This document shows, in pieces, positions 3,049 through 39,412 of a stretch of DNA of 39,412 bases (positions are counted from its first letter, which is position 1; each line of letters opens with the position of its first letter). Location of the stretch: IMG/VR virus record IMGVR_UViG_3300038313_000213, positions 1-39,412 of that record; one strand, 5' to 3'. Under the pieces are notes generated by a model. It was given only the letters and a program-made list of their open reading frames with translations, had not been told where the DNA came from and made no database searches. Source of the DNA: a virus. The position numbers and the translations under genes were made by a program.

Positions 3049-3324
3049 ATGGCTGATAAACTACCGATTGATTGCTTTTACAACCGCCCGCGTTTCGTGT
3101 TGTTTATGGACGCACTCGATGTATTGAATAAAAAAATATACTCGAAAGAGGCAACGTTAGCGAACGCATGTAAATTGAATAAACTCTCGGACATTGGAAG
3201 TATCACGCGCGAATTAAGCGTTTATTATGAAGCACGTAAGATACTACAAGACGACGTAGATAAACAAATGCACACACTTGACACCTTCCGAGGTTGTTAT
3301 ACCACACCGGAGGAAAAAGAATGA
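3049..3324 (+). CDS. Coiled-coil hypothetical protein
   Basis: GGGGGA RBS, upstream TTTATA box, stop overlaps the nrdD start. Confidence 0.75.
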   Translation: MADKLPIDCFYNRPRFVLFMDALDVLNKKIYSKEATLANACKLNKLSDIGSITRELSVYYEARKILQDDVDKQMHTLDTFRGCYTTPEEKE

Positions 3325-5597
3325 TCGACGTGACCGGCACCGAAGGCGTAAGTTCTTCTATGGCAATTACAGAGGCTTTACCCGCAGTTAGAAACACCGA
3401 CGGATTCAAGACAGAGTGGAACAGAACAAAGATCATAAACATGATCGTGAAAGAAACGAAACTATGTGAGATATTCTATAGCAAACCTGCCGCGACATAC
3501 GAAGAAGCGGAGGCAATTGCAAGAGAAACCGAAAACATAGTCCTGAAAATGCGGAGAGATTTTCTTTCAGGCCCGCTTATCCGTGAAATTGTCAACACTG
3601 TACTTATTGAACGCGGTCATCCAGAATGGAGAAATTGCATGACCAGAGTAGGCGTTTCAGTCCATGACGCGTTCCAGATTGATTCAGGATATGGATTTGA
3701 GGCGAAGGACAACGCGAACCAGCTTGATAACGCGGAGACAAGCCACAAGAGGAAGGCAGACAAGCTAAGTAAAGAGCAGAACCTTTTACTTATACCAAAT
3801 GAAGTTTCAGAATTACATCTCAGTGGAGAGCTCCACATTCACGATTTAGAGTACTTCGGTACAAGGCCATTTTGCCAAGACTGGGACTTAAGGTATTTCC
3901 TCTATTACGGCCTTATGCCAGACGGAGTAGGGAAACAGTCAAGCATAGCAGGACCAGCAAAGAAAGCCGAAGTAGCTTTTCTTCACGCAGTAAAAGCAAT
4001 GGGAAGCGCACAGACTAACTTTGCAGGTGGACAGGGATTCTATAACTTCCTTACGTTCATGGCTCCTTACCTTGTGGGAAAGACAGAAGAAGAGATTGAA
4101 CAGCTTATGCAGATGTTTGTTTATGAAATGATGCAAATGATGTGTGCAAGAGGGGGCCAGACCGTTTTCAGTTCTGTACAGCTTTCGCCAGGAGTCCCTA
4201 AGTTGTGGAGAGACAAACCAATTGTAGCAAAGGGGCATATTTACGACGGTGACAATTACCACGTAGAATGTACTTACGGGAAGCTCGAAAGGGAAGTGAG
4301 GCTGGCATTCAAAGCTTTAATGACAGTCATGCTTAAAGGGGACCACGAAGGAAAGCCTTTCTTTTTCCCGAAACCCGAAATAAGCATAGAACCTGATTTC
4401 ATGCAGGAAGATGAACTATTCAATGCAATGAATCCAGATGTGCCGACTTACAGAGAGCTGTACAGAATGGCGTTTGCGCTTGCTGCAAAGTTTGGAACAC
4501 CTTACTTTGATAATCAACTCCCTGCTTATCGTGGCGCGGGGGATGGGATTTCATGCTATCAGTGCTGCGCGTATCAGTTTTCGGCAAATCCAACCGATGA
4601 CATGGAATTTGACGATAAGTTATATTTCAGAAACGGAAAGCATTTCTCTATGGGGTCTTGGATGGTAATGAGTTTAAACTGTCCGAGGGCTGCATACAAA
4701 GCAGAGCATGACGACAAGAAACTCTTTGAAGAATTAAAATCTCTGATGTGTAGCGCAATCGTGGTATTCCGAACGAAGCGCGAATGGATGGAAAGGCTTA
4801 TAGCTGCAAATAGAATTCCTTTCGCAAGTCAACGACCCAAAGACCCGAATACCGGAAAGCTGGGAGAAACGGCGGTTGATTTCGATGCGCTGGTATATAC
4901 TATCGGGATTATCGGAATAAATGAAATGGTACAGTATCATACCGGATACCAGATACACGAATCCGACGACGCTTACAAGCTTGCGATCAGGGCAATGCTT
5001 GAAATGAAAATGTACGCCAAGGAATTGTCGCACAAATATAACATGGAAATTGCACTTGCCCGAACACCTGCAGAAACGACGGCTCAGAGGTTTGCAGTAT
5101 CTGACTTAATGCATGATGAGTATAGAGAGAAGGCAATGCAAGTGATAAAAGGAGATGTTGACAAAGCACTTGAACACATAAGCGAAACAAAAGACCTACC
5201 GGTTTACTACACGAACGGAACGCACTTAGCACCCGGAGCGAGTGTGACAATTACAGAGAGAATCCAGAAAGAACAAATATTTTTCCCGATTGTAGATGGT
5301 GGAAATATAATGCATATCTGGATGAATGAAAAAGTACCGGATGTAGATGGATTAATGGATTTCGGTATGAGAATTGCAAAGAATACGCAGGTTGGGTACT
5401 TTGCATTTACGAGAGATATGACAATGTGTCTCGACGAGGGGTACATGTCGAACGGGCTGCAGGAAAAATGTCCTAAGTGTGGATCTGGAAACGTTCAGCA
5501 CCTTTCAAGAATTACGGGATACCTGCAGAATGTAGAAGGCTGGAACGAAGGAAAAAAGCAGGAATTGAAAGATAGAGCGAGGTATGACGTGGCATGA
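3321..5597 (+). CDS. nrdD: Anaerobic (class III) ribonucleoside-triphosphate reductase with N-terminal ATP cone
   Basis: ATP cone (WNRTKI...GPLIREIV), HIHDL, FCQD, YQCCAY, RTPAE, C-terminal C..C/CPKCG Zn site and SRITGYL glycyl-radical motif; start moved to ATG 3321 (ATGA overlap). Confidence 0.97.
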   Translation: MIDVTGTEGVSSSMAITEALPAVRNTDGFKTEWNRTKIINMIVKETKLCEIFYSKPAATYEEAEAIARETENIVLKMRRDFLSGPLIREIVNTVLIERGHPEWRNCMTRVGVSVHDAFQIDSGYGFEAKDNANQLDNAETSHKRKADKLSKEQNLLLIPNEVSELHLSGELHIHDLEYFGTRPFCQDWDLRYFLYYGLMPDGVGKQSSIAGPAKKAEVAFLHAVKAMGSAQTNFAGGQGFYNFLTFMAPYLVGKTEEEIEQLMQMFVYEMMQMMCARGGQTVFSSVQLSPGVPKLWRDKPIVAKGHIYDGDNYHVECTYGKLEREVRLAFKALMTVMLKGDHEGKPFFFPKPEISIEPDFMQEDELFNAMNPDVPTYRELYRMAFALAAKFGTPYFDNQLPAYRGAGDGISCYQCCAYQFSANPTDDMEFDDKLYFRNGKHFSMGSWMVMSLNCPRAAYKAEHDDKKLFEELKSLMCSAIVVFRTKREWMERLIAANRIPFASQRPKDPNTGKLGETAVDFDALVYTIGIIGINEMVQYHTGYQIHESDDAYKLAIRAMLEMKMYAKELSHKYNMEIALARTPAETTAQRFAVSDLMHDEYREKAMQVIKGDVDKALEHISETKDLPVYYTNGTHLAPGASVTITERIQKEQIFFPIVDGGNIMHIWMNEKVPDVDGLMDFGMRIAKNTQVGYFAFTRDMTMCLDEGYMSNGLQEKCPKCGSGNVQHLSRITGYLQNVEGWNEGKKQELKDRARYDVA

Positions 5598-5749: not shown

Positions 5750-6478
5750 ATGCTAATTAATTTTGGTGGGAGTGTTGCAATTTCAACCGTGGATTATCCC
5801 GGGAAATCTGCAATAGTTCTTTTTTTGCGTGGCTGCCCTCTCCGGTGTCCATACTGCCATAACCATAAGTTGTGGAGTGGCAATAACTATGTTGAAATTG
5901 ACCACGTAAAAAATCTTATCCGCGAATCCATGCCCTTCATAAGTGCCGTGGTAATTTCTGGCGGTGAGCCTCTGATGCAAGAGAGAATCTTTGAAATTGC
6001 CAGCTTCGCTAAGTCTGAAGGTCTTTCGGTAGGAATTGAAACGAGCGGGTATTATCCCGAAGTTGCAGAAAGATTGATAAAAAAGAACATGGTTGATAAA
6101 TTCTTTGTAGATGTCAAGGCAAATCCTGAGAAATATGAGGAAATCACGAAAAATAAGTATGCTTTTTCAAGACTCGAAAGATTTTTAAAAATCGTCAAAA
6201 ATAACAACGTTCAATTTGAGCTTAGAACAACGATTGTTAAAGGGTTGATAGGAACACTGCCTGAATGTGATAAAATCGCTCGGTGGGCTTCTATGTGGCT
6301 TACAGTGGATAATACATGGACAATTCAACAAGGTATACCCGAAAACGGCAATTTTGAGCATTTCGACGGAATTCGTATGTATTCAAGGGAAGAAATACTT
6401 GAAATTGCCATGGGAATTAAGCGAATCGTCAAAAATGTAAAAATCAAGACAGTTGAACGAGGGGAAGAAACGTGTTAA
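5750..6478 (+). CDS. nrdG: Anaerobic RNR activating enzyme (radical SAM)
   Basis: STVDYPG, GCPLRCPYCHN (CxxxCxxC), SGGEP, ETSG; downstream of nrdD. Confidence 0.95.
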   Translation: MLINFGGSVAISTVDYPGKSAIVLFLRGCPLRCPYCHNHKLWSGNNYVEIDHVKNLIRESMPFISAVVISGGEPLMQERIFEIASFAKSEGLSVGIETSGYYPEVAERLIKKNMVDKFFVDVKANPEKYEEITKNKYAFSRLERFLKIVKNNNVQFELRTTIVKGLIGTLPECDKIARWASMWLTVDNTWTIQQGIPENGNFEHFDGIRMYSREEILEIAMGIKRIVKNVKIKTVERGEETC

Positions 6479-21092: not shown

Positions 21093-21362
21093 TTATTCCT
21101 GCTTCTTGAGTTTGAACAGGGCTCCAATTGCAACACCAATAAAGACCACAATGATAACGACCTTCATAAGAGTTGCGCCGGATGTCCACACTTCAGCACC
21201 GGTAGGCGCGGTTGCAAAATCACCGGATGCGTTAATTGGTAAAGCAGTTGATACCTCTTCACCCATCCCAGGTGCCAAATAGAAGATCACGACTACAATA
21301 AGAAGTCCAACAGCGAGTCCTATCACTTTCTGCATATCATCTTCCTGTACCATAAAAACCAC
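21093..21362 (-). CDS. Putative major capsid protein of a spindle-shaped virus (SSV1 VP1/His1-like two-helix hairpin)
   Basis: Two long hydrophobic helices, NAS sequon in the turn, basic C terminus (FKLKKQE), own promoter and terminator. Confidence 0.75.
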   Translation of the reverse strand: MVFMVQEDDMQKVIGLAVGLLIVVVIFYLAPGMGEEVSTALPINASGDFATAPTGAEVWTSGATLMKVVIIVVFIGVAIGALFKLKKQE

Positions 21363-21534: not shown

Positions 21535-21792
21535 CTAATTGCGCCTGCCTTTCTGTCTCAAAAACATTAGTGCAAAAATCACTAATACAACACCGAGAAT
21601 CATTGCAACCGGCGACATTAAGCTTAACGTCGCGTTCTGGACTCGCACATTTGATTCGTGCGTTTCCTCGTATCCCGTACCGGTTACATTTATCTGGTCG
21701 TCGTTTTCTGACAATATCCCCGATGTATACCCCATGAAAATTGACATAACCGCTATCAGGGCAATTATAGGAATTATCTGTTTCGTGCTCAT
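21535..21792 (-). CDS. Putative minor capsid protein (SSV1 VP3-like paralogue)
   Basis: Two hydrophobic helices, NVT/NAT sequons, NATLSLMSP..ILGVVLVIF, basic tail. Confidence 0.65.
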   Translation of the reverse strand: MSTKQIIPIIALIAVMSIFMGYTSGILSENDDQINVTGTGYEETHESNVRVQNATLSLMSPVAMILGVVLVIFALMFLRQKGRRN

Positions 21793-29147: not shown

Positions 29148-29918
29148 ATGAAGCTTACAAATTCTATTTCTATATCAGGAACAACCGGCACAGGTAAAAC
29201 ATACGGGGTCTGCAAGTTGGTCAATGATCTTGGACTTAAAGCCATGGTGCTTGATTTCGAAAACAAGACCGAAAAAACCGTAAAACTTCTTTTTCCCGAA
29301 GCTGCGGACAGATTTGAAATTGCAAACGTAATGCTCAGAAAGGAAGAACCGAAGACCGACGTAACAAAAGTAGGAAAGATAACTTCAAGAGATATGAGAA
29401 TTGTACTTAAGAACGCTCCGGATTATCTCAAGAGCTTCCTTAACCTGAAAGACAACTTGATAAATAATATTCTTGAGCGAAGTGATTTCGACGTTTTGGT
29501 GTATGACGGTGCAACCCCGATACTTCGCAACCAAATGGGCTTAGAGTATTGGAGAATGTTGCACCCTGATAGAGATAACCCAATGCCGGAAGAATGGGGA
29601 GCAATGAACGACATTGAACGCGCTTTCATTGAAGGTGGGATTGGCTGGGCAGAGGAAAACAACGGGCTCTTTATCGTAACTGGTCAGATGAAAGACCTTT
29701 ACCGTGGAGATAAGATAATCGGTGAAGTTCCGGCAATTTCAACGAAAGTACAGCATACAATTGATGTGACTCTGCAGGTAGAAAAGAAGATCGGGATTAA
29801 GACAGATTACGTTTGCACCTGCCTTGACTCGATAAAAGGGCAGTGGATTGAAAATCTCACATTTGACAGACATATAATTGATGTGCTAATTGAAAAGGAG
29901 CTGATTGGTTATGATTAA
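29148..29918 (+). CDS. P-loop ATPase, AAA_24/Sak4-like recombination protein
   Basis: ISGTTGTGKT, VLDFEN, VLVYDG, ..VTGQ.. RecA-like layout. Confidence 0.7.
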   Translation: MKLTNSISISGTTGTGKTYGVCKLVNDLGLKAMVLDFENKTEKTVKLLFPEAADRFEIANVMLRKEEPKTDVTKVGKITSRDMRIVLKNAPDYLKSFLNLKDNLINNILERSDFDVLVYDGATPILRNQMGLEYWRMLHPDRDNPMPEEWGAMNDIERAFIEGGIGWAEENNGLFIVTGQMKDLYRGDKIIGEVPAISTKVQHTIDVTLQVEKKIGIKTDYVCTCLDSIKGQWIENLTFDRHIIDVLIEKELIGYD

Positions 29919-30258: not shown

Positions 30259-30897
30259 ATGTCTCACCGTGTTTTTTCAGCGTCTGAAAACAGAATCGTA
30301 GCTAAAAGCATAACAGACGCAAGAGAAAAAATTGTAAGAGTGATTTGGAACAACGGGGCAAGACTAATTGACCAGAGGGGAGAAGCAACAAGGGAAATAA
30401 TCGGGCTTGAAGTAATTGTCATGAATGGCAATCTCGAAGCTGGACAGACCATAATGCTGCAGGCAGAAGACTTTGCAACTGGATTACTGAACGATTACAT
30501 TGCAATGAAAAAAGGAGAAGAATTCGATTACGCATACGGTGAGAGGTTAAGGAGAGCAAAACAACTTGATAGAGTAATTGAGCTCTTAAAGACCGATCCG
30601 AGTACAAGACGGGGATATCTGCCAATCTTCCAACCGTGCGACAATTTCAGCGATGTTGAAAAGCCATGTTGGGCTTCTCTTCAGTTCATAATTCGGAATG
30701 GGAGACTGGACATGATTGATTATTTCCGGTCAAATGAATGTTGTATAGCAATCCCGTCAGACATGTACGGAGCTTACAAACTGCTCGAATATGTGGCTGA
30801 AAAAGTAGGAGTAATGCCCGGGTGGATTTATCATTATATTGCTTGTGCTCATCTGAGAGAATCAGATTATGATACAATAAAAACTTTATTGGGGTGA
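30259..30897 (+). CDS. Archaeal-type thymidylate synthase homologue with Asp at the substrate-specificity position (possible dCMP methylase/hydroxymethylase)
   Basis: FDYAYGERL, DPSTRR, KPC (Cys137), FRSNE (Arg157), IPSD (Asp168), AHL; spacing matches E. coli C146/R166/N177. Confidence 0.85.
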   Translation: MSHRVFSASENRIVAKSITDAREKIVRVIWNNGARLIDQRGEATREIIGLEVIVMNGNLEAGQTIMLQAEDFATGLLNDYIAMKKGEEFDYAYGERLRRAKQLDRVIELLKTDPSTRRGYLPIFQPCDNFSDVEKPCWASLQFIIRNGRLDMIDYFRSNECCIAIPSDMYGAYKLLEYVAEKVGVMPGWIYHYIACAHLRESDYDTIKTLLG

Positions 30898-31094
30898 TTA
30901 TATGGTAAGTGCCTTAATTGCTGAGATTGGGAAGTATATGAAAGGATGCAAGTTGACGAATTTGAAAGGCTTAACGATGCTGGCAACACACCGAAAACGT
31001 TCTTGGAATTGCTGGAAACGATAAAAGAACATGATGAAATGTTTAAAAATTTAGTTCGGGAATCATTGAAAAAATAATTAATTGTGGGGGTAAC

Positions 31095-31334
31095 ATGTGC
31101 GAAGTAGTTGAATGTCAAAACACAATTGAATGTCGAAATTGTGACTATTGGTATAGGATTGGTGGACGCTCATATGAGGGAAAATGTAGACGGACTGGAA
31201 ACAAGGACATGAAAGAAACACTGTTTAATTTCTCATGCGATAATGGGATTCATGTTAAGTCGAGTTTAACTTTTCAGGGGGTAAACGTATCGTCTATAAA
31301 AACGATAACAATTGTATCAAATATAATTATATGA
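31095..31334 (+). pseudogene. Cys-rich ORF interrupted by IS607
   Basis: The track C terminus reads into the IS end; removing the IS joins it in frame to GHLNCGNHAKR* (33237..33272). Confidence 0.55.
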
Positions 31335-31384
31335 TATTATCAGATAGTAAACTATAAATAGAAAGACAACCATATATAATTATT

Positions 31385-31972
31385 GTGAAAGCTGGAGATG
31401 TATTGAAAGTCTTGCACATCTCAAGACCTACATTGTATAGATATGCTGAAGCTGGTTACATCAAAAGAAATAAGCTCCCTAATGGGAAGTACGACTATGT
31501 TGATGAATCCGTGTATGCATTTCTAAATAAAGATGTTAAACGCAAACATGTAATTTATTGCAGGGTTTCGACTTCAAAACAGAAAGCAGATTTGGAAAAT
31601 CAGGTTGAGTTTCTCAAAAGCTGGTCTTTCAACTCAGGCATAAAAATTGATGCAGTCTACAAAGATGTTGCATCTGGCATTTCATTTGAGAAAAGAAAAG
31701 AATTCTTTGAAATGCTTGATGAGATACTTGATTTCAAGGTTGAAACTGTAATAATTGCATACAAAGACCGATTAAGCAGAATAGGGTTTGAGTTGTTTTC
31801 AAACTTGTTTGCTAAGTTCGGGACAAAAATAATAGTTGTTTCAGAAGCAGGAAATAAGAAATTAGATTCAGAAGAAATCTTTGAGGAAATAATTTCTTTG
31901 TTGCACTGCTACAGCATGAAGCACTACAGCAAACGAAAAACCCCAAAATCATTGGAAATCGAGGTGGAATAA
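31385..31972 (+). CDS. tnpA: IS607-family serine transposase
   Basis: N-terminal HTH, IYCRVST (catalytic Ser), DVASG, YKDRLSR. Confidence 0.95.
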   Translation: MKAGDVLKVLHISRPTLYRYAEAGYIKRNKLPNGKYDYVDESVYAFLNKDVKRKHVIYCRVSTSKQKADLENQVEFLKSWSFNSGIKIDAVYKDVASGISFEKRKEFFEMLDEILDFKVETVIIAYKDRLSRIGFELFSNLFAKFGTKIIVVSEAGNKKLDSEEIFEEIISLLHCYSMKHYSKRKTPKSLEIEVE

Positions 31973-31973
31973 C

Positions 31974-33209
31974 ATGGCACTTGTGACTAGAACTGAACAA
32001 ATTCAATTTAAATCTGAAACTATTTCAGCTCTAGCTCACGCTTCCAAAAACCTATACAATGCAGGAAACTACCTAATGAGACAAAGATTCTTTGAGAATG
32101 ATAGGATCTACAAGGAGACAGGAAAGAAAGGTGAAGGAATTTGGTACAAGCAGCTTTACCCAATGTTGAAAGACACAGAGGACTACAAAGCTTTACCAGC
32201 TCAAACCTCACAGCAGGTTTTAAAGCTACTGGAGAAGAGCTGGAAAGCCTTCTTCATGGCTTCCAAAGCCTTTGCTAAGTCACCTGAGAAATTCTTAGGA
32301 AAACCAAAGCCTCCAAAATATAAAAACAAAGATGGGGAACACATCTTGATTTTCACTAACCAACAGTGCAAAATCAAAGACGGTATCTTGAAGTTTCCGA
32401 AGATTGCAGATCTTGAATTAAAAACAAGACTCAAAGACATTGATCTTAGAGAAGTTAGAATAATTCCAAATGCAAATAAGTACACCTGTGAAATTGTCTA
32501 CAATAAGACAGTCACTGATAATGAAATCAACTCTAACAGAGTTCTAGGCATTGATCTCGGTGTTCGTAACATTGTAACTATTGCAAACAACTTTGGAGCA
32601 AAACCAATTGTTGTTAAGGGCAACACTGCAAACAGCATGAATCAGTACTACAACAAAATAAGAGCTGAATTACAGAGTAAATACGATTTGCAGGGAATTA
32701 GAACAGGTAGCAAGAAAACAAAACTAGATTGGAAGCGTAACAATAAGGTTAAAGATTATTTCCACAAGCTAAGTAAACGAATTGTTGACTATGCAGCAGC
32801 TAACAACGTAAAAACCATAATCATTGGTAAAAATGAGAACTGGAAACAAGAAGTTAATATAGGTAAGAAGCTTAATCAGAAATTCGTAATGCTTCCATTT
32901 GCAAAGCTCATAGAAATGATTCAGTACAAGGCACAGGAAAAGAGCATAGAAGTAATACTTCAGGAAGAAAGTCATACTTCAAAGTGCAGCTTCTTAGATC
33001 TTGAACCAATTGAGCACAGAGAGAAATACATAGGAAAGAGGATCAAAAGAGGAATTTTCAGAAGTGGTAAAGGAATTCTGATTAATGCAGACGTAAACGG
33101 AGCATTGAACATAATCAGGAAAGCAACTCCAAAAGCATTTGCAGACGGAGTAGAGGGTGTAGGGTTACACCCAAAGAGATGTTTAATAGCATCTTTTGAA
33201 TATATTTGA
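31974..33209 (+). CDS. tnpB: TnpB RNA-guided nuclease (IS607-associated)
   Basis: LGIDLG, EESHTSK, NADVNGALNI RuvC motifs; lacks a full Zn finger. Confidence 0.93.
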   Translation: MALVTRTEQIQFKSETISALAHASKNLYNAGNYLMRQRFFENDRIYKETGKKGEGIWYKQLYPMLKDTEDYKALPAQTSQQVLKLLEKSWKAFFMASKAFAKSPEKFLGKPKPPKYKNKDGEHILIFTNQQCKIKDGILKFPKIADLELKTRLKDIDLREVRIIPNANKYTCEIVYNKTVTDNEINSNRVLGIDLGVRNIVTIANNFGAKPIVVKGNTANSMNQYYNKIRAELQSKYDLQGIRTGSKKTKLDWKRNNKVKDYFHKLSKRIVDYAAANNVKTIIIGKNENWKQEVNIGKKLNQKFVMLPFAKLIEMIQYKAQEKSIEVILQEESHTSKCSFLDLEPIEHREKYIGKRIKRGIFRSGKGILINADVNGALNIIRKATPKAFADGVEGVGLHPKRCLIASFEYI

Positions 33210-33276
33210 TCATGTTTTGATCATTTATAATAACCTGGACATCTGAACTGTGGTAATCATGCGAAAAGGTGATCTT

Positions 33277-33507
33277 ATGAGTGAACGCTTTTATGATGAA
33301 TCATACGAAGAGATGGCAGAAAGGAAAGTAAAAGAGAGGGACGCAATACCAAAGAAAATTATAGCAATTGCGGGGGCAGGTGTGGTATACGCGGTATTGT
33401 GTGCGGTGGGTGGAGCTCCGGTTTATCTTCCTGCGCTCGCGGTACCGTTTGTGTTTCTGGCTCTTTATATTCTGGTTCGCAGATATAGAGAGCTTGAAAC
33501 ATTTTAA
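33277..33507 (+). CDS. Two-TM membrane protein
   Basis: AGGTGA RBS before ATG 33277; hydrophobic C-terminal half. Confidence 0.65.
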   Translation: MSERFYDESYEEMAERKVKERDAIPKKIIAIAGAGVVYAVLCAVGGAPVYLPALAVPFVFLALYILVRRYRELETF

Positions 33508-33516
33508 ATTTATTTT

Positions 33517-33870
33517 TTGGGGGAAAGAAACGTGAAGACTATTGGGGAAATCATAATCGCAAACGATAAAATAGTAACCGTGAATGTCCCGGTCTATGGG
33601 ATTGTAGAATGTATAACCGACGAGCCTGAGATTGTTTTTAACACACTAGTAAACAGCGAGCGTAGGGTGTACGGTGTAATTGAGATTCTGGAATGTGAGG
33701 CTTATTTCCTTCATTTCCTTGACAGAAAAGATGTCAGTCTTGCGGTGAAAAACAACGACTCGATGAATATATGTGACTTCTGCAATCGAAATTGCATTAC
33801 AAATAAAAATTGTCTGTTCGAGTGGAACGGGCTTTTTGATTTGAATGAGGGAATTAAGGGGTACTGCTAA
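33517..33870 (+). CDS. Hypothetical protein with Cys cluster
   Basis: CDFC...C...C; start uncertain. Confidence 0.55.
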   Translation: MGERNVKTIGEIIIANDKIVTVNVPVYGIVECITDEPEIVFNTLVNSERRVYGVIEILECEAYFLHFLDRKDVSLAVKNNDSMNICDFCNRNCITNKNCLFEWNGLFDLNEGIKGYC

Positions 33871-33948
33871 GAACTTTTATATAGTATTGGGGTGTACATA
33901 GTAAATAAATTAAATTAAAAACGTTCAATGTTTTTTGGGGGAAAATCA

Positions 33949-34398
33949 ATGAACGAAATAGACGTGAACAAATCAAAAGAATTTTTGTTGTCTTTCAGGA
34001 TAGGAACGCCATTAAGCAAGGTGAAAGCGCATTATAACAACTACATTAAAAACAGATCCGAAAAAGATACACTCGAATGCAATTACAGAAACAGCCGCAC
34101 GAAAAAATACACTAAAGAAATCCGCACGGTAATGAAGAAGCGCATTGCATATATTTTTGGGGGAGAATGTGCTATATGTGGCAATCCCGAGAATTTGGAG
34201 ATTCATCACATAATACCCCGCGCAAGTGGGGGCACAAATGATATTGCGAATCTTATACCACTTTGCCATGAGTGCCATTGCAGCATTCATAAAATGGCAG
34301 AGATACGCGGCAAAAAGACATATGAAGAGAAGTTCAATCAGGTTCTAAATCAGAATGTAGAATTTTGTAATTGCCTAGTGGGTGGGGAATGTGCTTAA
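33949..34398 (+). CDS. HNH endonuclease
   Basis: CAICG...EIHHIIP..GGTN...NL..LCHECH; GGGGGA RBS before ATG 33949. Confidence 0.9.
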   Translation: MNEIDVNKSKEFLLSFRIGTPLSKVKAHYNNYIKNRSEKDTLECNYRNSRTKKYTKEIRTVMKKRIAYIFGGECAICGNPENLEIHHIIPRASGGTNDIANLIPLCHECHCSIHKMAEIRGKKTYEEKFNQVLNQNVEFCNCLVGGECA

Positions 34399-35809
34399 TC
34401 AGAAAGACATAAGAGAACACTATAAACGTCCTGAAATTGTCGAGGCAATTACAAGGATTTCAGCTGATGGTAATTTCAGCAGGGCCGGAATGAAATTTAC
34501 TCCTTGTGCTTATGTAGACAGGGAAACAGGAGAGCTCAAAGATTCAATGGACTGGTATAATCTCAGACCTGGCAACAGAAGAACGAAGAAAAAAATTGAT
34601 ATGTCAAAGACCAAAGATTACATTAATGCGGTGACCGAGTGCAGGACTTTGTATTGGACATTGAATGTCTTTGGAAAGGAAATATACGATGTCGATTATA
34701 GACAAGTTGACAAAGCAGAAGGGCCGATGTTAAGCAGGGTCCACACAGTCGGGTACACTCTTGGAATTGACATAGACAAAGAGCATGGTTGCGATATTCA
34801 TTCTCCTGCAGTAAAAGAAGCCGTGGAAGATATGGCACAATACTTTACAAACATTCTTCGTGAACACTTACCGAATTCCGTTTACGTTCTGTATTCAGGC
34901 GGTGGGATATATGTAATGTTGCACCATAAAGCATTTGAAAAGTATTTCGACAGGTTCAGAGATTCAGAAGAATGGGATATGATGTTACTTACCTTCTTAG
35001 ATGCCTTTGATTGTCTCATAGGAGACATGCGAGAGTCTTTCTTTAAGGAGTTTCCACAACATAAAGGTAAAGTTAAGCCTGACCAACTGAACGGCTCTCA
35101 GAGAGTCTTTAAGACGCTTTACAGTGTGCATAAGAGTTTAGATTATGCGGTAGTTCCTTTGGATGTGGACAATATCAAGGTAGACTTTAATGCGGCTACA
35201 ATTCCATTGTCAAGCTCTGTAATTGCTATGGGAAATGAGTGGTATTCAAAATGGGACGATGGGACAGAATTTCTTAACAAAGTGTTTAAGCCTTATCTCG
35301 AAAATTCATACAAAAATAGAAGATCTGCAATAAGCAGAATGGATGGAAGAGAAGTTGAGATATCCGAAACTCCGATCGGTTATGAAAATTGGGCTCCTTG
35401 CATGAAAAACTTGTTTGAGTTGGAAGATTGCGGAGAAGGGGCAACCCGTGCACTAGCTGTATTCTGTTCATACTTAGGGCAAATGGGGATAGAAGAGGAA
35501 GAAGCTTATCAGTGGTTTAACCTGCTTGCGGATAGATGGAACGCAAGAAAAAGTAATTTATTCGAAAGTTATTATAGAAGTATGAAGGTTCCGACATGCG
35601 AACGTTTGAACGCCATTGACAACGTGGGATTCCCGAAAGGCGTTTCTTTGCGGAGTCTTTGCGTTTGTGAACCGGATGACAGATGTCTTAAAGTGCCGTC
35701 TCCGTTGTATTATTCCGATGCAGTTGCAGAGAAAAAACGACAGGAAAGTAAAGCAGAAAGGAAAATTGACTATAAACCAGTAATCAACATTCGAAAGAAA
35801 AATAATTGA
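34382..35809 (+). CDS. Archaeo-eukaryotic primase, PriS catalytic domain fused to a PriL-like Fe-S domain
   Basis: GIDID, YSGGGI, QRVFK..YS.H; C-terminal APCM...PTC...C.C...C Cys set; alternative GTG start at 34391. Confidence 0.8.
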   Translation: MGNVLNQKDIREHYKRPEIVEAITRISADGNFSRAGMKFTPCAYVDRETGELKDSMDWYNLRPGNRRTKKKIDMSKTKDYINAVTECRTLYWTLNVFGKEIYDVDYRQVDKAEGPMLSRVHTVGYTLGIDIDKEHGCDIHSPAVKEAVEDMAQYFTNILREHLPNSVYVLYSGGGIYVMLHHKAFEKYFDRFRDSEEWDMMLLTFLDAFDCLIGDMRESFFKEFPQHKGKVKPDQLNGSQRVFKTLYSVHKSLDYAVVPLDVDNIKVDFNAATIPLSSSVIAMGNEWYSKWDDGTEFLNKVFKPYLENSYKNRRSAISRMDGREVEISETPIGYENWAPCMKNLFELEDCGEGATRALAVFCSYLGQMGIEEEEAYQWFNLLADRWNARKSNLFESYYRSMKVPTCERLNAIDNVGFPKGVSLRSLCVCEPDDRCLKVPSPLYYSDAVAEKKRQESKAERKIDYKPVINIRKKNN

Positions 35810-35818
35810 GGTTGTAGT

Positions 35819-36106
35819 GTGGCAATAACACAGAAAGAAATACACGAAAACGCCGTAAACCATGGGTGGTGGGATACCAACGTACGGATACCAGAGATCC
35901 TTTGCCTGGTTCACGCGGAGGTATCCGAGGCACTGGAAGCATACCGGAAGTACGAAGATGAACACATGGCAGAAGAACTGGCGGACGTTGTAATAAGAGT
36001 AATGGATTTATGCGAAGCTCATGGAATTGACCTTGAAGCAGAGATTGAAAAGAAGCATGAAATAAACAAAGGAAGACCTTACAGACATGGAAACAAAAGG
36101 TGCTGA
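35819..36106 (+). CDS. MazG-like nucleotide pyrophosphohydrolase
   Basis: HAEVSEALE...EELADVVI...K...N..R. Confidence 0.88.
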   Translation: MAITQKEIHENAVNHGWWDTNVRIPEILCLVHAEVSEALEAYRKYEDEHMAEELADVVIRVMDLCEAHGIDLEAEIEKKHEINKGRPYRHGNKRC

Positions 36107-36175
36107 ACATGAGCAAAGATAAAAATAGCGAATGTTTTTCATGGAGCAGGAAACGAGGAAAAGAATTTGTGAGGA

Positions 36176-36484
36176 ATGAACTTGACAATTACAGAGAGCA
36201 GAGAGCAACAAACAACAACGCGGCAAATAAATCTTGTATGTAAAAGCCTTGCTAAATTCCTGCACGTAAAGGATAGCAGATATGGAAGTTCTATATCTGA
36301 TCCTATACACGTTTTCGCAAAAGGGACAGCAGACGACTTGCTTTATGCAAGGATTGACGATAAAATAAACAGAATACGAAACAGTGAAGAACTAAGAAAA
36401 AATGATGTAGTCGATTTAATGGGTTACTTAGTGTGGGTTTGTATTAAAAAAGGTTGGTTAAGTTTCAGGGATTTGATAGATTGA
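36176..36484 (+). CDS. Nucleotide-modification-associated domain 1 (Nmad1/DUF1599-like) protein
   Basis: K...YGSS...P...F...RIDDK..R...DLMGY. Confidence 0.7.
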   Translation: MNLTITESREQQTTTRQINLVCKSLAKFLHVKDSRYGSSISDPIHVFAKGTADDLLYARIDDKINRIRNSEELRKNDVVDLMGYLVWVCIKKGWLSFRDLID

Positions 36485-38066: not shown

Positions 38067-38230
38067 TTCTATATCGATGATGTCTTGTCAACTACCCCAC
38101 GCTAAAGCTGTGGGGCTTGCGTTTCTATGTCTTAGTTTCCTAAGCAGAACACAATAGGCTGATTGACGACAGCCCTAGAAGCTATATTTTTAGCCGCATT
38201 GAAATCAGCATTTTCCGTATGTCCACATTC
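38067..38230 (-). ncRNA. Predicted TnpB reRNA with flank-derived guide AAGACATCATCGATAT...
   Basis: Established TnpB biology: the reRNA spans the tnpB 3' end and right end and takes its guide from the flank; 5' boundary is approximate. Confidence 0.5.
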
Positions 38231-39328
38231 AAGGCAAACGAAAGATGCCTGATTCTTTCTGTTCTTTTTGTCGATATAACCACAAACAGAACACTCTCTT
38301 GAAGTATTTCGAGGATCAATAGGTATTACAGGAACTCCTAACAATTTTGCTTTGTATTCTATGAAGTTCCTTAATTCAAGAAAAGCCCACTTTCCAATTG
38401 ATTCTCTAACAGCTTTTGAAACCGTTACACTCTCTCTAATGCCTGAAAGATCTTCCAGAGCAATAGCTCGATTTGTGTCTTTAGCTGTTTGTACTATTTT
38501 CTTAGAAATACAATGATTAGTATCTTTTTTGAATCTTCTTTCTTTTCCACTAATTTTTCTCAGATGTTTCTTTGCGGACTTTGTACCTACTGATTGCAGG
38601 ACAGATTTTACTTTCGCGTATTTCTGCCTGACTTTGGTACATTTTTCACCGGAATAATTTTCACCATCTGATGTTGTAGCCAGATTAACAATACCCAAGT
38701 CCACACCTAATACACCATCTGGGAGGATTGGTTCTGCATCTGGAAGATCTACTACTATCATTAGATAGAAAGTTCCATTTTTGTAGATAAGATCAGCCTG
38801 CCCTCTGACTCTATTAGCTTCCAGCTTTCGGTATTCACCGTATTGGATACCAACCTCTATTCTACCATCTAATGTAAGGATAGATATTACATCGGCTGAC
38901 CTATATGACAGAATTCTCTGATCATAGACAATAGCACCATGTGGATCAAATTCATGAAGTGTGTTTCTGTCTACTTTATAGGATTCAGCAACTTTACCGA
39001 CTGCTCTAACTGTCATTTGAGCAGATAATCCGTATTTTTCTCTTATTTCATAATAGAGTTCTTTCTGAATTCCAACCTTACCGAATAACTTTTTCTTGAA
39101 AGCAAAAACAGAAATAAAATTACATGCTTCATTGAATTTTTCCATAGTCTTTAATAACTTATCATGTTGCTCTTTATCAGTTATCAGTTTAGACTTTACG
39201 GTTAGAAGCATGTTATACACCTTTGCTATAGAGTATATGATTCTATAGTATTTATACATTTGTGCCTTGTGTTAAGTTGACGGAATTCCTCCCTGTGCTA
39301 AAGCATCAGGGCTTCCTTCCTTCTGACC
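38087..39328 (-). mobile_element. tnpB-only IS200/IS605-family element (IS1341 type), inserted 3' of TCAC
   Basis: LE hairpin 39291..39311 with guide GAAG matches TCAC at 39332..39329; RE hairpin 38095..38115 with guide CAAG matches terminal TGAC at 38087, following IS608 guide-pairing rules. Confidence 0.9.
38132..39211 (-). CDS. tnpB: TnpB RNA-guided nuclease, apparently intact
   Basis: LGVDLG, IALEDL, NADFNAAKNI, CSVCG/CLECG Zn finger; start probably ATG 39211 (track gives 39259). Confidence 0.95.
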   Translation of the reverse strand: MLLTVKSKLITDKEQHDKLLKTMEKFNEACNFISVFAFKKKLFGKVGIQKELYYEIREKYGLSAQMTVRAVGKVAESYKVDRNTLHEFDPHGAIVYDQRILSYRSADVISILTLDGRIEVGIQYGEYRKLEANRVRGQADLIYKNGTFYLMIVVDLPDAEPILPDGVLGVDLGIVNLATTSDGENYSGEKCTKVRQKYAKVKSVLQSVGTKSAKKHLRKISGKERRFKKDTNHCISKKIVQTAKDTNRAIALEDLSGIRESVTVSKAVRESIGKWAFLELRNFIEYKAKLLGVPVIPIDPRNTSRECSVCGYIDKKNRKNQASFVCLECGHTENADFNAAKNIASRAVVNQPIVFCLGN

Positions 39329-39412
39329 GTGATAAGAAACAAAATAAACCCGATGTGTATATTTTTCATGTCATCTCCTCCCGTTCAGTCGCTTGAATTT
39401 GTCATTAAAACA
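39329..39412 (+). repeat. 84-bp direct repeat, copy 2
   Basis: Identical to 14..97. Confidence 0.95.

Follow-up and report, generated by a model that had tools for sequence, protein, structure and literature searches.

The 39,412-bp virus record IMGVR_UViG_3300038313_000213 of IMG/VR, analysed here over its whole length and called the window below, encodes on its plus strand (positions 30259-30897) a 212-residue thymidylate synthase homologue with Asp at the site where the canonical enzyme, ThyA, reads uracil with an Asn. We refer to this protein as ThyD. Judging from comparisons of its sequence, ThyD belongs to a so far undescribed, virus-borne clade built on the short archaeal-type thymidylate synthase scaffold. 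We consider a cytosine-modification pathway that runs through this predicted Asp-type enzyme the best explanation for the locus, and would give it about an even chance of being correct. Direct support exists for the membership of ThyD in the family, for its intact set of catalytic and phosphate-binding residues, for the occurrence of Asp throughout the clade and for synteny with a gene for a MazG-like pyrophosphohydrolase. Searches of a full-text library brought up no account of Asp-type ThyA homologues or of a cytosine-modification pathway in non-tailed archaeal viruses, in agreement with an earlier model-generated reading of the same letters (the sequence-only reading), which knew of no such pathway in spindle-shaped archaeal viruses.

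A virus-borne Asp clade of short thymidylate synthase homologues

The start codon of ThyD directly follows the stop of the upstream open reading frame (ORF). The protein is recognised by the Pfam model PF00303 (Thymidylat_synt; E 2.8e-16, 59.9 bits against a curated cut-off of 24.3), and its best NCBIfam match is the methanogen-type ThyA, TIGR03283, to which it aligns end to end (model positions 3-200 of 201). Its score of 117.9 bits lies below the equivalog cut-off of 174.55, so that ThyD does not qualify as a canonical ThyA by this measure. Reference sequences for residue assignments were taken from annotated records of E. coli ThyA, T4 gp42, the ThyA of Methanothermobacter virus PhiF1 and an Acinetobacter phage enzyme. 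In the alignment, Cys137 of ThyD (within EKPCWAS) takes the place of the catalytic Cys146 of E. coli ThyA, Tyr93 that of Tyr94, Arg117/118 and Arg157-Ser158 those of the phosphate-binding Arg126/127 and Arg166-Ser167, and His198 that of His207. None of these aligned residues varies within the clade; the equivalent of Arg21 is ambiguous, with an invariant Arg40 off by one column. Identity within the clade falls to about 30%, and because the catalytic set is kept even at this distance, the pattern is that of an active enzyme.

Four further sites set ThyD apart. Its base-reading residue is Asp168 (IPSDMYG), which corresponds to Asn177 of E. coli ThyA and to Asp179 of T4 gp42; Glu160 stands for Asp169, Glu134 occupies the Leu143 site and Arg200 the Tyr209 site. 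The sequence-only reading had equated Cys137, Arg157 and Asp168 with C146, R166 and N177 of ThyA and pointed to the Asp and Glu replacements, and alignment with E. coli ThyA and T4 gp42 bears it out. ThyD departs from canonical ThyA at position 177 and has the residue combination of T4 gp42, namely Asp at 177 together with an acid at 143 (D168 and E134). It lacks the D169N exchange of 5-hydroxy-deoxycytidine monophosphate (5-hydroxy-dCMP) synthases. Its best sequence matches in the PDB are an Asp-type phage enzyme that bears the D169N motif (9iqu/9iqc) and the cytidine monophosphate (CMP) hydroxymethylase MilA, and dCMP hydroxymethylases are among its best annotated phage matches.

How widespread is the Asp? 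An exhaustive profile search returned 4,128 relatives of ThyD, and among the 161 sequences aligned from the 150 best library hits (query included) the column of site 177 holds Asp in 116 and Asn in 45. Trees built with FastTree from 166 rows and with IQ-TREE from 72 rows agree in topology. They place ThyD in a clade of short proteins (about 204-229 aa; SH-like approximate likelihood-ratio test, SH-aLRT, support 99) in which all 30 members carry Asp, whereas in the adjoining clade of short archaeal ThyAs (support 95) Asn is found in 51 of 51. Only four switches between Asp and Asn are required on the 166-row tree. The Tyr209 site, which in ThyA contacts the 3'-hydroxyl of the sugar, differs along the same line: the Asp clade has Arg (18), Ile (11) or Lys (1), the Asn clade Tyr in 50 of its 51 members. 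At the Asp169 site the Asp clade is split between Asp (16) and Glu (14), and none has Asn.

The two clades also differ in where they occur. All fourteen short archaeal ThyAs that were taken from cellular genomes are of the Asn type, six of them scoring above the TIGR03283 cut-off, and other representatives of the Asn clade come from contigs of up to 3.6 Mb and from Asgard metagenome-assembled genomes; the Asn-type ThyA of Methanothermobacter virus PhiF1 falls into the Asn clade as well. Asp-clade members were found on metagenomic or viral contigs only, next to genes for MCM, archaeo-eukaryotic primase (AEP), NrdD/NrdG, ParB and similar proteins. A profile scan of genome contigs gave a single archaeal match, of the Asn type, and no deposited phage genome matched the region by megablast. 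The sequence-only reading had considered that close archaeal ThyAs might routinely carry Asp; the adjoining clade, its cellular members included, is uniformly Asn. ThyD thus resembles the methanogen-type ThyA in best-scoring family, length, architecture and sister-group position, and is unlike it in its sub-threshold score, in the Asp at the base-reading site, in the Arg at 209 and in residing on viral contigs rather than in cellular genomes.

What do these residues predict? In ThyA, Asn177 reads O4 and N3 of uracil. Its exchange for Asp (at Asn229 in the L. casei enzyme) makes ThyA a methylase of dCMP, and in T4 gp42 this position is taken by Asp179 (restated in PMC8670742). Across metaviromes, Asp at 177 is the residue most linked to cytosine-modified DNA (PMC8670742), and every natural Asp-type enzyme tested acted on dCMP (PMC13326640). 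Both studies are consistent with the rule invoked by the sequence-only reading, by which Asn specifies deoxyuridine monophosphate (dUMP) and Asp specifies dCMP. Because Asp is present throughout the clade and all characterised precedents point the same way, we think it quite probable that ThyD reads cytosine, not uracil.

The nature of the product is less readily predicted. A bulky Leu143 shuts out water in methylating enzymes and is replaced by Asp or Glu in hydroxymethylases, and D169N marks the 5-hydroxy-dCMP synthases (PMC13326640). Since Glu160 keeps an acid at the 169 site, ThyD would not be of the 5-hydroxy-dCMP type. By the phage rule, Glu134 makes ThyD look like a hydroxymethylase; this rule transfers unsafely to the archaeal scaffold, because Glu or Asp is likewise found at the Leu143 site of 35 of the 51 Asn-type archaeal ThyAs. 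For the same reason, and since these ThyAs are without His147, we dropped Leu143 and His147 as markers that separate methylases from hydroxymethylases. Among the short Asn-type archaeal ThyAs, those designated L003-L016 and L021 mostly carry Glu or Asp at the Leu143 position, and their products may merit attention.

Comparison with the characterised enzymes delimits the prediction further. ThyD shares with T4 gp42 and the phage 5-hydroxymethyl-dCMP synthases the superfamily, Asp at 177, acids at 143 and 169, the catalytic Cys and the Arg-Ser pair, and in both settings a viral pyrophosphohydrolase could supply dCMP, as gp56 does in T4. It differs from gp42 in overall sequence (about 25-29% identity), in its short scaffold, which is devoid of the folate-side inserts and of the C-terminal part, and in having Arg at the Tyr209 site. 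T4 is a lytic myovirus, whereas the window represents a small, circular, integrase-bearing, non-tailed archaeal virus, and unlike T4 it contains no match to a cognate deoxynucleoside monophosphate (dNMP) kinase, a glucosyltransferase or a second thymidylate synthase. The 5-hydroxy-dCMP synthases (RB69 gp48 and DLP3 gp80, with the motif also present in 9iqu/9iqc) have in common with ThyD the Asp at 177 and include its best PDB matches; their diagnostic D169N is absent from ThyD. According to 18O2 labelling, the hydroxyl oxygen of their product derives from O2 (PMC13326640); a host in an anaerobic digester is unlikely to offer O2.

MazG and a candidate route to modified cytosine

Downstream of ThyD, a 95-residue MazG-like all-alpha nucleoside triphosphate pyrophosphohydrolase is encoded at 35819-36106 on the plus strand. 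It exceeds the cut-offs of PF12643 (27.2 bits against 27) and PF03819 (26.5 against 22), matches the PHROG 3301 pyrophosphatases with an E-value of 4.5e-27 and has an intact EXXE...EEXXD metal-binding motif (E34, E37, E52, E53, D56). The MazG assignment of the sequence-only reading therefore holds, as does its placement of an NrdD/NrdG pair in the genome: an anaerobic ribonucleoside-triphosphate reductase with an ATP cone lies at 3294-5597 (PF13597, E 1.2e-154) and an NrdG-type radical-SAM activase at 5750-6478 (PF04055, PF13353), both on the plus strand. It is plausible that MazG provides the step from dCTP (the triphosphate of deoxycytidine) to dCMP. We attempted to deduce its substrate from solved relatives and found nothing in the PDB beyond weak resemblance to MazZ and to small, uncharacterised MazG proteins; the TAL-effector entries at the top of the structure search were repeat artefacts without a significant stretch.

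In the following scenario we infer what ThyD acts on and makes, what MazG does, where the one-carbon unit comes from and that the product enters DNA. NrdD and NrdG would reduce CTP to dCTP, which MazG would then hydrolyse to dCMP, a step that is needed because the reductase works at the triphosphate level and the modifying enzyme at the dNMP level. ThyD, an enzyme that on this proposal was retargeted from uracil to cytosine on a short archaeal scaffold, would transfer a one-carbon unit onto C5 of dCMP to give either 5-hydroxymethyl-dCMP or 5-methyl-dCMP. Host kinases would return the modified nucleotide to the triphosphate, and the host replisome, primed by a primase-like protein of the virus, would place the modified base into viral DNA, perhaps only in part. 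A more far-reaching version appears to us somewhat less probable than the pathway as such, and we advance it tentatively: that this is the first pre-replicative cytosine modification in a methanogen virus that is non-tailed and probably spindle-shaped, carried out by a separate Asp-type clade (N177D combined with Y209R/I/K), possibly with methylene-tetrahydromethanopterin or methylene-tetrahydrosarcinapterin (H4MPT/H4SPT) as the donor, and relying on host kinases and the host replisome.

The gene neighbourhood is conserved. In three close relatives (L020, L028/G062 and L029/G063), whose ThyD proteins are 84-91% identical to that of the window, the order is RecA-like gene, ThyD, HNH endonuclease gene, primase-like gene, MazG and a gene for a 102-residue protein. 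In one of them, G062, a ComEB-like dCMP deaminase gene (L042:1480-1923) is inserted between MazG and the 102-residue gene, and its stop codon overlaps the start of the latter. This placement suggests that MazG yields dCMP; the deaminase fits equally well with a flow from dCMP through dUMP to deoxythymidine monophosphate (dTMP), or from 5-methyl-dCMP to dTMP. Depletion of the dCTP pool by MazG, as the sequence-only reading had proposed, is plausible and finds indirect support in this deaminase, which belongs to the operon that also contains MazG; the rest of that proposal is conjectural or weakened. The same reading had treated ThyD, MazG and the 102-residue gene as one rightward block. They do lie on the same strand and are not contiguous: an IS607-type insertion element, the HNH gene (33928-34398, plus strand; PF01844, E 8e-12) and the primase-like gene stand between ThyD and MazG.

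The primase-like gene (34382-35809, plus strand) encodes a 475-residue protein that has no match in Pfam or PHROG. The nearest clusters of a protein atlas carry PF01896 or PF18689, by which the protein is probably an archaeal-type primase (a candidate archaeo-eukaryotic primase, PriS/PriX-like), a lead only. The 256-residue product of 29148-29918 (plus strand), two genes upstream of ThyD and kept in all close relatives, likewise lacks a Pfam match. We considered it as the missing dNMP kinase on account of a weak PHROG match to 'thymidylate kinase' (E 0.0012) and rejected it: its AlphaFold2 model (pLDDT 87.8) is a RecA/Rad51-fold P-loop ATPase, with RAD51, RadA and RecA found by Foldseek at E 1e-9.

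The 102-residue protein itself (36176-36484, plus strand) is a conserved three-helix protein with 23 homologues, which share the invariant motif K..YG...R.DDK..RI...R.ND..DL.GYL. The sequence-only reading had called it Nmad1/DUF1599, a name that describes it by motif only and does not survive the searches: the corresponding Pfam model, PF07659, failed to match the protein at E-values up to 5, the protein and 20 homologues taken singly at up to 1, or a six-frame translation of the record at up to 10. As a lead, in a language-model search the nearest named atlas cluster contains 14% DUF1599 members (score 0.90). A Foldseek search of the PDB with the three-helix model gave nothing at E <= 0.001, and in VIA-align the only full-length matches were MazG/HisE pyrophosphatases (Z 5.4-5.5), within the noise for helical bundles.

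Weighing cytosine modification against its rivals

Several observations weigh against cytosine modification, or at least against its more complete forms. MazG proteins are frequent in viruses with ordinary DNA. The closed circular window contains no match to a thymidylate kinase (Tmk-type) or to a family 2 (GT2) glycosyltransferase, as the sequence-only reading had also found, and neither a viral DNA polymerase nor an unassigned ORF of polymerase size. The virus bears an integrase, and we saw no functions that degrade host DNA in the window, so that an altered dCTP pool would also touch host DNA. The acid at the Leu143 site, common as it is to Asn-type archaeal ThyAs, does not discriminate between products. 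The usual companions of the clade, a deoxyuridine triphosphatase (dUTPase) and a dCMP deaminase, suit thymidylate supply as well as modification; the dUTPase is represented by a bona fide dUTP diphosphatase gene two genes downstream of a more distant Asp-clade gene (L026, L027). Finally, cognate kinases strongly increased incorporation of the modified base in published assays (PMC13326640).

Further objections come from comparison with relatives. Dcm-type DNA C5-methyltransferases are encoded by G063, a complete genome of 61 kb, and by L019, in both of which ThyD is 84% identical, and a distant Asp-clade contig (L025) has a PF00145 C5-methyltransferase. Such Dcm-type enzymes need unmodified cytosine in DNA, and would have nothing to do in DNA whose cytosines were all substituted at C5. 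GGCC, moreover, is depleted in the window and in both relatives examined for it, with observed/expected ratios of 0.51 (window), 0.49 (G062) and 0.53 (G063) and z-scores of -3.1 to -4.1. It is the only palindromic tetramer clearly depleted in all three related genomes; CGCG is enriched in them (observed/expected 1.2-1.45). The avoidance of GGCC suggests exposure to GGCC restriction or to site-specific methylation, not blanket protection, and since blanket C5 substitution would lift the selection behind it, full replacement is disfavoured. We tried to connect the Dcm methyltransferase with GGCC; its catalytic domain is M.HhaI-like, its target-recognition part aligns to nothing, and no link could be drawn. 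Together, the Dcm enzymes, the deaminase and the GGCC deficit argue against complete replacement of cytosine and are compatible with partial or stage-specific incorporation. The modified-cytosine proposal of the sequence-only reading is thus upheld in part: Asp does mark a cytosine enzyme and does so across the clade (30 of 30, against Asn in 51 of 51), whereas the Nmad1 assignment fails, a kinase is missing, relatives encode Dcm and GGCC is avoided.

L019 is distinctive in other respects. It encodes a family A DNA polymerase, a D5-type primase-helicase and an NrdD of intein-sized extra length (1,115 aa) alongside its Dcm methyltransferase, most of its primase-like gene is missing, and BLAST with the MazG of the window detected no homologue in it. 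These differences indicate that the replication module is swapped among close kin.

Alternatively, ThyD might serve to supply thymidylate, providing dTTP (thymidine triphosphate) for a genome of 60% A+T with canonical viral DNA. This is the main rival, and one we think rather unlikely. It could operate in two ways: ThyD might accept dUMP in spite of its Asp, given how divergent the scaffold is, as N177D mutants of ThyA retain part of their dUMP activity, or it might form 5-methyl-dCMP that is subsequently deaminated to dTMP by a viral deaminase such as that of G062, or else by a host enzyme. ThyD is the sole ThyA/ThyX homologue in the window, where we found neither ThyX nor a second ThyA, and the same is true of three further records, which are related or belong to the Asp clade and of which two are complete. 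The ComEB-like deaminase of G062 and the dUTP diphosphatase of L026/L027 are classic partners of dUMP and dTMP metabolism, and unmodified DNA would fit both the Dcm methyltransferases in the relatives and the avoidance of GGCC. Yet such companions do not discriminate, for the hydroxymethylase of T4 is likewise accompanied by a dCMP deaminase and a dCTPase/dUTPase; among the relatives, the deaminase was found in one only. More importantly, a plain role in dTMP synthesis gives no reason for Asp in 30 of 30 members as opposed to Asn in 51 of 51, and all natural Asp-type enzymes that have been characterised use a cytosine nucleotide.

A precedent for thymidylate supply exists in the Asgard wyrdviruses, putatively spindle-shaped archaeal viruses whose dUTPase-ThyX-Nmad1 block is the nearest described case and is read in the literature as thymidylate synthesis. 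Like the window, they combine a synthase-type enzyme, a nucleotide pyrophosphatase and a small protein, which is of the Nmad1 type in the wyrdviruses and Nmad1-like by motif in the window. In the wyrdviruses the synthase role falls to ThyX, an unrelated flavin enzyme, and the small protein is DUF1599 at the level of Pfam, whereas the window has an Asp-type ThyA homologue and a 102-residue protein that fails DUF1599.

A second possibility is that ThyD modifies a cytosine nucleotide that is not destined for DNA. It might act on CMP in the manner of MilA, with a product that perturbs host pools, acts as a signal or feeds another pathway. The presence of MilA among the best PDB matches is in line with this idea; the clade-wide replacement of Tyr209 by Arg, Ile or Lys hints at an altered sugar-binding site, and no kinase match is at hand to raise the product to the triphosphate. 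We regard it as improbable, since the gene sits among genes for replication and deoxynucleotide metabolism (NrdDG, primase-like, RecA-like), the neighbourhood lacks genes for a glycosidase or another tailoring enzyme, and the division between Arg and Ile at the 209 site speaks against one specific new contact. That ThyD is a degenerate or non-catalytic homologue, such as a nucleotide-binding regulator, would accommodate its low TIGR03283 score and the odd residues at sites 147, 169 and 209, and is very improbable given that the catalytic Cys, Tyr94, His207, the Arg pair and the Arg-Ser pair are invariant down to about 30% identity.

The virus and the meaning of the clade

The virus is small, circular and archaeal, and of anaerobic-digester origin. 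Bases 14-97 of the window recur exactly at its 3' end (39329-39412), so that the contig closes on itself and the record is an effectively complete circle of about 39.3 kb. The sole mismatch at the ends concerns the first 13 bases, beside a TnpB element (38132-39259, minus strand). The CheckV completeness estimate of 66% probably reflects larger relatives. The gene content comprises the integrase, a DnaA-like ATPase and two hydrophobic two-helix proteins of about 85-89 aa; it includes neither terminase nor portal, and is in keeping with a non-tailed archaeal virus. PHROGs profiles lent no support to spindle-type capsid proteins at 21093-21362 and 21535-21792, and no tRNA genes were found in the window.

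The IS607-type element that interrupts the ThyD-MazG block occupies 31385-33209 on the plus strand (serine recombinase 31385-31972, TnpB 31974-33209), is missing at the same place in L020, L028 and L029, and lies outside the proposed pathway. An identical element is present in a sister variant (L032), where it is situated downstream of the 102-residue gene and MazG rather than beside ThyD, so that the element seems to be mobile among the viruses of this population. The 375-residue TnpB of the element at 38132-39259 is identical in protein sequence on tailed-virus contigs (L036-L040) that come from fermentation or digester samples as well, with a large terminase gene three called genes downstream, which suggests exchange of insertion sequences among unrelated viruses, perhaps via a shared host. 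Identical insertion-sequence proteins occur on contigs of fermentation and digester metagenomes and on no named genome.

In tailed bacteriophages, much work has been done on non-canonical bases made at the nucleotide level, which protect the DNA against restriction and CRISPR nucleases; little is known about such bases in archaeal viruses. A haloarchaeal phage was reported long ago to have DNA fully substituted with 5-methylcytosine, and 7-deazaguanines are reportedly present in phage and archaeal virus DNA. A clade with the hallmarks of a cytosine enzyme on an archaeal scaffold, limited to archaeal virus contigs, offers a concrete and inexpensive target of 212 residues. The comparison also raises questions about the short archaeal ThyAs themselves, many of which are acidic where methylating enzymes hold a water-excluding Leu. 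Should ThyD turn out to make thymidylate, it would constitute a natural exception to the Asn/Asp rule by which modified DNA is predicted from sequence. If, on the other hand, it acts on dCMP, then the modified-cytosine strategy would extend to viruses of methanogens, including one that has no polymerase or kinase of its own, and this would bear on how the defence systems of methanogens view such DNA.

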